A program made the position numbers and the translations under genes. Below the pieces are notes generated by a model. It was not told where the DNA came from. It did no database searches and saw nothing but the letters and a program-made list of their open reading frames with translations. Positions 178 to 507 of a stretch of 64,000 nucleotides of DNA are shown piece after piece (within the stretch, counting starts at the first letter, position 1; each line of letters begins with the position of its first letter). The DNA is from an uncultured cyanobacterium. Lineage in GTDB: Bacteria > Cyanobacteriota > Cyanobacteriia > PCC-6307 > Cyanobiaceae. The stretch is from the NCBI GenBank assembly GCA_903882285.1, contig CAIRWM010000055.1:9473-73472 (forward strand). The letters are read 5' to 3'.

Positions 178-194
178 GTAGCAATCGCTACTAT
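178..194 (+). promoter_or_regulatory. NtcA-type box GTA-N8-TAC (GTAGCAATCGCTAC) overlapping a -10 element TACTAT (189-194)
   Basis: GTA 178-180, 8-nt spacer, TAC 189-191, with perfect GTAGC/GCTAC arms. The TAnnnT hexamer shares the TAC and places the predicted TSS near 201, where the riboswitch begins. Confidence 0.75.
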
Positions 195-200
195 TTAAAG

Positions 201-295
201 ATCGTTGACCAGGCCGCACCCACGGTTCTGGCGGAACTAGGGGCCCCATCCGATCCGGGTCCACCCTTTCCGGGTCTGCCCTGAAGCAACGCGCC
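201..295 (+). ncRNA. Glutamine riboswitch, glnA (glutamine-I) class
   Basis: ATCGTTGA-CCAG..CTGG-C-GGAACTA-GGG..CCCT-GAAG-CAACGCGCC. P1 is CGTTG/CAACG, P2 is CCAG/CTGG with inner CCG/CGG, and P3 is closed by AGGG/CCCT. This matches the remembered glnA scaffold CGUUGACCCAG..CUGGGCGGAAGUAAGG..CCUGAAGCAACGCG. Confidence 0.85.
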
Positions 296-343
296 ATCCA
301 TCCCTGTCGGCTGCGGCCGCAGGACTTCCAAGGAGGCCCTTCC

Positions 344-457
344 ATGACCCATACCACCGCCCAGCAACTGGCGCGCCAGGCCGAAGCCGCACGCCGCGCC
401 GCCCGCGAACACGCCTACACCGTTCAGTCCCTGCGCAAGCAGCAGCTGATCGACTGA
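344..457 (+). CDS. Unannotated 37-aa protein [37 protein letters not shown], candidate nitrogen-regulatory microprotein
   Basis: AGGAGG at 331-336 lies 7 nt before ATG 344. Codons are GC3-rich, the stop is TGA 455-457, and a terminator follows. Confidence 0.72.
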
Positions 458-481
458 GCCGTTGGTGCCGCGGCCGGCCGC

Positions 482-507
482 AGCCCCGCCCGATGGCGGG
501 GCTTTTT
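482..507 (+). terminator. Rho-independent terminator after the small ORF
   Basis: AGCCCCGCC-cgat-GGCGGGGCT followed by TTTT. Confidence 0.85.

Follow-up and report, generated by a model that had tools for sequence, protein, structure and literature searches.

In Synechocystis sp. PCC 6803, the gifB gene, which encodes the glutamine synthetase (GS) inactivating factor IF17, is repressed by NtcA and has been shown to be activated by a glutamine riboswitch, and masking of the Shine-Dalgarno (SD) sequence of the kind considered below has been proposed for it (Klahn et al. 2018, PMC6212724). In marine Synechococcus and Prochlorococcus, which also belong to the Cyanobiaceae, an NtcA box and a second type of glutamine riboswitch, the Glutamine-II element (Downstream-peptide, RF01704), precede short DUF4278 'IF17-like' peptides such as PMM1846, whose target is likewise not known (PMC6316151). 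Every glutamine-riboswitch cargo studied or proposed in cyanobacteria has been linked to GS control (PMC6212724, PMC6316151), and for picocyanobacteria without IF7 or a full-length IF17 this control was called unclear in a review of the field (PMC6316151). Here we describe a compact cassette from an uncultured, Cyanobium-type freshwater member of the Cyanobiaceae, in which an NtcA-type box and a type-1 glutamine aptamer stand before a 37-codon gene. It lies in a 64,000-nt stretch of contig CAIRWM010000055.1 (positions 9,473–73,472; hereafter the window).

The cassette occupies positions 178–508 of the window, on the plus strand like all other window features named below, and consists of the NtcA-type operator, the aptamer, an anti-SD, an SD, the 37-codon open reading frame (ORF) and a terminator. 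The operator GTAGCAATCGCTAC (GTA-N8-TAC, 178–191) shares its TAC half-site with the predicted -10 hexamer TACTAT (189–194), and promoter geometry predicts a transcription start at 199–201, 5–7 nt past the -10 hexamer. The aptamer (201–295) begins 10 nt past this TAC, at the predicted start site. It is followed by the anti-SD GCCAUCC (293–299), a predicted platform hairpin (303–323), the SD region AAGGAGGC (330–337) with AAGGAGG at 330–336, and the peptide gene (344–457), which starts with ATG at 344; an intrinsic terminator (482–508) closes the unit. An earlier note, made from the letters of this DNA, had named the box overlapping TACTAT, the aptamer, the SD, the short ORF and a terminator isolating it from the downstream fbaA gene, and each of these was found where it had placed them.

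This layout, with its predicted -10 element, follows that of the gifB leader, in which the NtcA site lies at or over the -10, the transcript opens with an RF01739 aptamer and an anti-SD tail comes right after the P1 stem, ahead of a monocistronic gene for a small basic product; expression at nitrogen excess, as for gifB, is predicted here. In contrast to gifB, the cassette encodes a 37-residue single helix that has neither a DUF4278 domain nor an IF7-like C-terminal region, its P1 stem is CGUUG/CAACG instead of CGUUC/GAACG, and the copy in the window has a C at a conserved G of the E-loop. The Glutamine-II systems share with it the combination of box, riboswitch and tiny peptide; they differ in having a pseudoknot aptamer, whereas that of the cassette is a three-way junction, in encoding another peptide family, with YRG repeats that the cassette peptide lacks, and in occurring in many copies, whereas the cassette is single-copy. 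IF7, the 65-residue GS inactivating factor encoded by gifA, is also small and basic, with arginines that are essential in IF7 and conserved in the peptide, and NtcA repression has been shown for it and is predicted for the cassette. Unlike the cassette, gifA has no riboswitch, and the peptide is about half the length of IF7 and has no sequence relationship to it. Taken across the family, we consider it very probable that a genuine peptide is under genuine NtcA and riboswitch control.

The same arrangement was found between the gene for a GFO/IDH/MocA-family oxidoreductase and fbaA in 46 species of seven Cyanobiaceae genera. These 46 species-level cassettes were examined; all of them have a GGAG-type SD and an ORF of exactly 37 codons, and 43 carry the aptamer. 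Searches of relatives with RF01739 returned this arrangement upstream of fbaA within the same genus. Searches with the peptide alone detected it in 66 of 125 genomes of its own genus and, in an order-wide sample, in 32 of 301 genomes from 7 of 34 genera, all in one family; it was absent from the small-genome or marine-type genera g20, g24 and g27 (0 of 73, 0 of 33 and 0 of 24 genomes, respectively). At all 12 loci fetched by the peptide alone, an RF01739 match of 29.7–42.8 bits lay 40–50 nt upstream. At the level of sequence, the link between aptamer and peptide is confirmed independently by these loci, and the joint conservation of ORF and aptamer, proposed as a check when the cassette was first noticed, holds in the 43 cassettes with both. 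Its presence at one and the same place in seven genera suggests that the cassette is old and was lost later in some lineages. In one genome (G102, 3% contamination), two copies of the peptide gene were present (L209; G102:C24:533-643), and the copy at the oxidoreductase locus forms a full cassette with a more diverged peptide (MSITTATQLARAAAEARRAAKQNGYAVNALRRQHLID).

The cassette is missing from five genomes of the genus that are complete or nearly so, and there the oxidoreductase stop codon runs directly into the promoter box of fbaA (GGGCATCCCCTAGACTCC). These empty sites indicate that the cassette is a clean indel of ~390 bp and that fbaA is independent of it. In the window, the 3' end of the oxidoreductase gene (2–121, known from the ORF list and from Pfam families on identical contigs), with its stop at 121, marks the left boundary, outside the cassette proper. 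The right boundary, also outside, is formed by the box CATCCCCTAGACTCC (531–545), which we read as the fbaA promoter on account of its -10-like TAGACT, and by the fbaA ATG at 618. Every genome inspected has this strongly conserved box ~75–100 nt upstream of the fbaA start, whether it carries the cassette or not (L192–L196 in addition to the window), and the box is presumably the fbaA promoter.

The 37-codon ORF evolves as a protein-coding gene. Mean dN was 0.18 and mean dS 0.65, giving a ratio of 0.27 that indicates purifying selection, and variable alignment columns numbered 20, 17 and 31 of 37 at the first, second and third codon positions, respectively. Alternatively, the ORF might encode no functional protein and be a leader peptide or a side effect of an RNA structure that acts on fbaA in cis. 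Its invariable position immediately upstream of fbaA would suit this alternative, as would the absence of an obvious T-run terminator from L027, L028 and L030. We nevertheless judge it highly improbable: it does not sit well with the dN/dS ratio and third-position bias, with the strong SD, or with a length and stop codon that do not vary among 46 species. Between the last base of the ORF (457) and the terminator stem lie 24 nt, and the two do not overlap; the fbaA promoter box is the same in genomes from which the cassette is cleanly absent. The terminator itself has a 9-bp stem with eight G-C pairs (482–503) followed by TTTTT, and a comparable hairpin with a T run was seen in most orthologues; together with the separate fbaA promoter box, it sets the ORF apart from fbaA.

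The predicted peptide has a mass of 4.25 kDa, a pI of 10.8 and a net charge of about +2.7, with the composition reported earlier (5 Arg, 1 Lys and 3 acidic residues). Eleven positions (T4, A6, Q8, A10, Q12, A13, R17, R18, L30, R31 and L35) do not vary among the first 20 sequences, and on visual inspection Arg17, Arg18 and Arg31 are also unchanged in the further peptides displayed. AlphaFold2, run with the family alignment, predicted a single helix, described as amphipathic, over residues 3–36 (pLDDT 77). Scans against Pfam and NCBIfam gave no match to the peptide, its 13 database clusters are named 'hypothetical' or not at all, and no copy was present in phage and plasmid collections. When 1.84 billion representative proteins were searched with a family profile, 12 hits were obtained, of which 10 were members of its own family (miscalled starts running through the leader, truncations and chimeric contigs) and 2 were weak repeat-type matches; there were no distant relatives and no intermediates to IF7 or IF17. 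A sequence search of the Protein Data Bank (PDB) retrieved designed helical proteins only for the peptide and no solved relative for the IF7-like profile, and no published description of the peptide was found in the literature. Codon statistics and database searches show the predicted 37-residue product to be that of a real coding gene forming a family of its own, with no relation detected to known proteins, which bears out the suggestion of the earlier note that it may be a new family.

Extreme divergence from IF7, or from the C-terminal part of IF17, would offer another origin for the peptide, the cassette then being a gifB gene whose coding region has shrunk. Its promoter and riboswitch module does look homologous to the DUF4278/gifB type, since the aptamer locus L018 of a distant cyanobacterium also has its box over the -10 element and the same CGUUG/CAACG P1, and both proteins are small, basic and Arg-rich with an 'AR.L' motif at the start. 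The proteins themselves argue the other way. We built two IF7-like profiles from ORFs behind aptamers in other cyanobacteria together with bona fide IF7-type proteins, and hhalign gave the peptide probabilities of 0.1% and 0.16% against them; BLASTP against IF7 and IF17 produced no alignment. The IF7 motifs RQQ and W..QGK..P.F..YDRS are absent from the peptide, and the exhaustive profile search yielded no intermediates. A diverged IF7 or IF17 homologue is therefore improbable, and we regard the peptide, if it acts on GS at all, as a functional analogue of these factors and not a homologue.

We then considered the layers of control. The GTA-N8-TAC-NNT pattern had a single match in the 64-kb window, at 178–194, whereas shuffled windows contained a mean of 0.15 matches, with at least one match in 13 of 100 shuffles. 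The GTA-N8-TAC box lies over the putative -10 element in all 46 orthologous cassettes, where the -10 place reads TAC[TCGA][AG]T; in the first 23 cassettes, for which the spacing was determined, 24–25 nt separate it from the CGUUG of the aptamer. Such an overlap would be the geometry of a repressor site, as opposed to a site near -41.5. No -35 element was matched upstream of TACTAT in the window promoter, and the genome encodes NtcA (374 bits). A second, imperfect NtcA-like box (GTATCAGGGCTCAC, GTAGCAACACGGAC) was seen in the -35 region of several cassettes, one or two turns of the helix ahead of the main box (~25 nt upstream in L038, L040, L041, L045 and L049; positions 95–108 of L209); the window has none.

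The RF01739 match at 201–295 covered the full model (1–53 of 53) with 30.1 bits, at an E value of 5e-5 in a narrow local scan and of 1.5e-4 genome-wide, where it was the sole match; a 3-kb scan at E<=1 missed the aptamer owing to speed filters. Orthologous aptamers scored 29.7–42.8 bits, many of them above 35, and long inserts in P1a and P2 lower the score. The aptamer consists of P1 (203–207/287–291), the base of the P1a stem (209–213/227–231), the junction CGGAACUA (232–239), a long P2 arm (240–282) and GAAG (283–286). Its stems covary: pairs 3–7 of P1a occur among orthologues as A-U, G-C, C-G and G-U, compensatory changes also preserve the base of P2, and P1 differs from that of other cyanobacteria by the double change noted above. 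The nucleotides that contact glutamine in the glutamine-I structure, C1, G2, G22, C58 and G59 (PMC6698751), are all kept by sequence (C203, G204, G233, C290 and G291). The G and C of crystal positions 23 and 60 are kept as well, as G234 and C292. We take these two to form the long-range G-C pair that closes the structure. Judged by its sequence and stems, the window element is a type-1 glutamine aptamer orthologue by descent.

One nucleotide of the junction departs from this pattern. The E-loop of the solved structure comprises 23-GAAGUAA-29 and 50-UGAAGC-55 (PMC5393176, the RNA-Puzzles paper). In the window, the junction reads GGAACUA and not GGAAGUA, so that the E-loop strand opposite GAA is ACUA in place of AGUA, and the substituted C237 corresponds to G26 in crystal numbering, in the middle of the 23–29 strand. 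This position is presumably the bulged G of the E-loop, a sarcin-ricin type motif. It is a G in the 42 other cassettes with an aptamer and in 18 aptamers of other cyanobacteria (60 of 60). The same C occurs in seven independent metagenome assemblies encoding the identical peptide and is therefore not an assembly error. C237 explains the low score only in part, since orthologues with G and long hairpin inserts go down to 29.7 bits. Where the earlier note had spoken of a complete glnA-class aptamer, the full-length match at the predicted start site stands, and C237 at the presumed bulged G qualifies the word complete.

The riboswitch may be impaired in this species. NtcA alone would then govern the gene, with translation permanently low through the intact anti-SD, or the glutamine threshold would be changed. 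The fixation of C237 in seven assemblies, its place within the E-loop, the conservation of the replaced G in all other aptamers examined and at least three losses of the riboswitch within the family point in this direction. Set against them, the ORF is intact, and so are the SD and anti-SD, P1, the ligand contacts and the two nucleotides G234 and C292 (crystal positions 23 and 60); the E-loop is outside the binding pocket (PMC6698751), and much of the low score is owed to the hairpin inserts, as canonical-G orthologues of 29.7 bits illustrate. We consider impairment unlikely on balance, and on the sequence evidence the chances that this particular species responds normally to glutamine would be about even.

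Ligand binding has been shown for a sister of this aptamer. The core and junction of the crystallised glutamine-I aptamer (PDB 5DDO/5DDP, 'Synechococcus sp.') match those of the cassette (CGUUG(A/G)CC.., GG(C/U)GGAAGUA(A/G)GG and CCUGAAGCAACGCG). Pattern searches for a crystal source within this cassette, including a family-wide search, found nothing beyond chance matches of a 16-mer in unrelated bacteria. The natural sequence behind the crystal constructs (PMC5393176) matches positions 1500–1557 of L018, in the distant cyanobacterium G028, where the box GTAGCATTTGTTAC (GTA-N8-TAC) lies over TACAGT and is followed by the aptamer and a gene for a 94-aa DUF4278 protein (MELTYRG...). Since the crystal source is L018-like and stands before a DUF4278 gene, binding is shown for the sister aptamer and not for the cassette.

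Folding of the leaders suggested how the aptamer may act on translation. The anti-SD is directly 3' of P1 and of C292, which is C60 in crystal numbering. In 19 of 23 leaders folded from P1 to the start codon, the minimum-energy structure paired GCC-A-UCC with GGAGGC, a sequence conserved in 18 aligned leaders. This helix encloses the platform hairpin, which was predicted in nearly all leaders and differs in sequence among species. RNAalifold returned the same anti-SD/SD helix together with an extra pair involving the glutamine-contacting G59, and aptamers of other cyanobacteria have a similar GCGCCUC tail. Pairing of ACUUCC before the AUG with GGAAGU of the aptamer core was also considered and dropped, because folding consistently gave the anti-SD next to P1.

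Three species provide natural deletions of this platform. Their cassettes have lost both the aptamer and the anti-SD, yet retain the NtcA box, the SD and the 37-codon ORF (L211 in G230, L212 in G286 and L218 in G301). A poly-C tract takes the place of the aptamer in G230, whose peptide retains the core motifs ARQAE.ARRAA and LQSLRKQ.LI; in G286 and G301, an apparent deletion joins two CCCTGGCCGGCGGC-like stretches, removing the aptamer core and the anti-SD. Loss of the aptamer together with the anti-SD leaves the gene translatable, which fits an ON switch before a peptide that matters. Comparison of the cassettes shows that control by NtcA, as predicted from the box, is the more persistent layer and the riboswitch the less persistent one.

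We propose the following model. At low nitrogen, when 2-oxoglutarate is high, NtcA bound to the GTA-N8-TAC box over the -10 hexamer would block transcription. At high nitrogen, the promoter would fire and yield a transcript that opens with the type-1 glutamine aptamer. As long as glutamine is missing, the 7 nt 3' of P1 (GCCAUCC) would pair with the SD sequence GGAGGC. Binding of glutamine would lock P1 and the long-range G-C closing pair of the published structure, using nucleotides next to the anti-SD; by analogy with that structure and with gifB, we infer that fixing these neighbours would free the ribosome site and allow the peptide to be made. The terminator would end the unit ahead of fbaA, which has its own promoter. 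The peptide, as an amphipathic helix with the invariant Arg17, Arg18 and Arg31, would bind and damp a protein of nitrogen assimilation, the first candidate being GS. We give this whole explanation, an autonomous cassette reporting nitrogen excess with GS as the first-candidate target, a rough probability of 45%.

Several observations weigh against this explanation. The RF01739 score is below the Rfam gathering threshold of 35 bits; C237 departs from the conserved E-loop G in this species alone; and covariation speaks neither for nor against the anti-SD/SD helix, because both of its strands are invariant. On the side of the peptide, R11 is replaced by Leu in one genus, the hhalign probabilities give no hint of kinship with the IF7-like proteins, and the locus always adjoins fbaA, so that its neighbours offer no functional clue. 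The idea that the peptide simply replaced DUF4278 proteins had to be rejected, since 18 genomes have both. The regulatory part of the earlier note's interpretation gained comparative support from the box in all 46 cassettes, the aptamer at the predicted start site, the anti-SD/SD platform, the terminator and the separate fbaA promoter. The part that has the gene switched on by glutamine under nitrogen-replete conditions is, in view of C237, less certain for this species than for its relatives.

It is from its regulation alone that we read the peptide as a nitrogen-excess effector, and the divergent GS inhibitor put forward in the earlier note is a tentative reading on the same basis. GS became the first-choice target because cargo under this logic damps GS, because the genome is without IF7, IF17 and DUF4278, and because a short basic amphipathic helix suits docking to a protein; we regard GS as a tentative assignment that is somewhat less than evenly probable. 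Searches of the genome found no IF7-like gene and no DUF4278 (PF14105) match, which the peptide lacks as well, and RF01704 gave noise only (E at least 0.75), so that the peptide is the only riboswitch-controlled glutamine output found there. The same genome (G000) carries four GS-like genes, on contigs C67, C116, C43 and C44 (L188–L191): one best match to GSI (450 bits), two paralogues with the GS catalytic domain and a 733-aa frame that matches in part and may be of the GSIII type.

Under the same regulation, the peptide could instead act on another nitrogen node: PII/PipX/NAGK, GOGAT, or the uptake of ammonium, nitrate or urea. Its lack of similarity to the GS-binding region of IF7 leaves room for such a target, the four GS-like genes leave more than one candidate even among GS paralogues, and the 18 genomes with both genes have short DUF4278 proteins that are themselves proposed GS factors. 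A precedent is PirA (Ssr0692) of Synechocystis, which is reported to be a small PII-interacting protein controlling flux into the ornithine-ammonia cycle (PMC8092223). As is proposed for the peptide, this small regulator of cyanobacterial nitrogen metabolism works by binding to a partner protein, and it serves here only as a model for this rival target, the cassette peptide matching no Pfam or NCBIfam family. PirA is reportedly repressed by NtcA and accumulates on ammonium upshift, and we know of no riboswitch before its gene. Against another node stand the ties to GS control of all characterised or proposed glutamine-riboswitch cargo in cyanobacterial genomes (PMC6212724) and the fact that this clade has no further candidate for a GS inactivating factor with an IF7-like portion. 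We hold a target other than GS to be possible, at clearly less than even odds, and continue with GS as the first candidate.

Of the 125 genomes of the genus, 18 had the peptide as well as a short DUF4278 gene, 48 the peptide only, 40 DUF4278 only and 19 neither. The resulting odds ratio of 0.18 overstates the anticorrelation, because related genomes are not independent, and the co-occurrence in 18 genomes argues against simple redundancy. The short DUF4278 genes of many of these genomes encode proteins of 64–71 aa without an IF7-like C-terminus and have no detectable glutamine aptamer. They share an upstream palindrome, TGTTCA-N3-TGAACA (e.g. aaatgttcagaatgaacagtg), ~60–130 nt upstream of the DUF4278 ORFs (L058–L060 and L062–L066), which looks like an operator of another regulator. 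In other cyanobacteria (G025, G031, G032 and G036), a naive ORF call places small hydrophobic or otherwise unrelated ORFs (for example MSSSVFTTTELIAVISLYCIAFCPILCWVL...), and not DUF4278, behind some high-scoring type-1 aptamers (L008, L009, L033, L014 and L034). Seven aptamers were counted in G031, three of which follow one another at ~300 nt. Type-1 aptamers may have further non-DUF4278 cargo there.

New beyond the earlier note are the variant E-loop, the loss of the aptamer in three species, the empty sites, the model of the expression platform and the exhaustive search for homologues. With the cassette, the known cargo of glutamine riboswitches is no longer confined to DUF4278, and its family offers natural variants for the study of switch function and decay, in the E-loop G-to-C change fixed in one species and in three independent aptamer deletions. 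A 37-mer is small enough for chemical synthesis, which makes the question of its target directly testable. With the control logic of gifB and an unrelated product, the cassette is a good candidate for a missing regulator of nitrogen assimilation in this Cyanobium-type group. In the broadest form of this proposal, which we advance as a possibility falling a little short of an even chance, the 37-residue helix would found a new family of nitrogen-excess effectors and fill the missing role of IF7 and IF17 in Cyanobium-type picocyanobacteria through an interface unrelated to IF7, inhibiting GS or another assimilation step. It would be their sole RNA-based glutamine-sensing output, with a riboswitch layer that appears dispensable in evolution, having been deleted three times and mutated in this species, and an NtcA control that was never lost.

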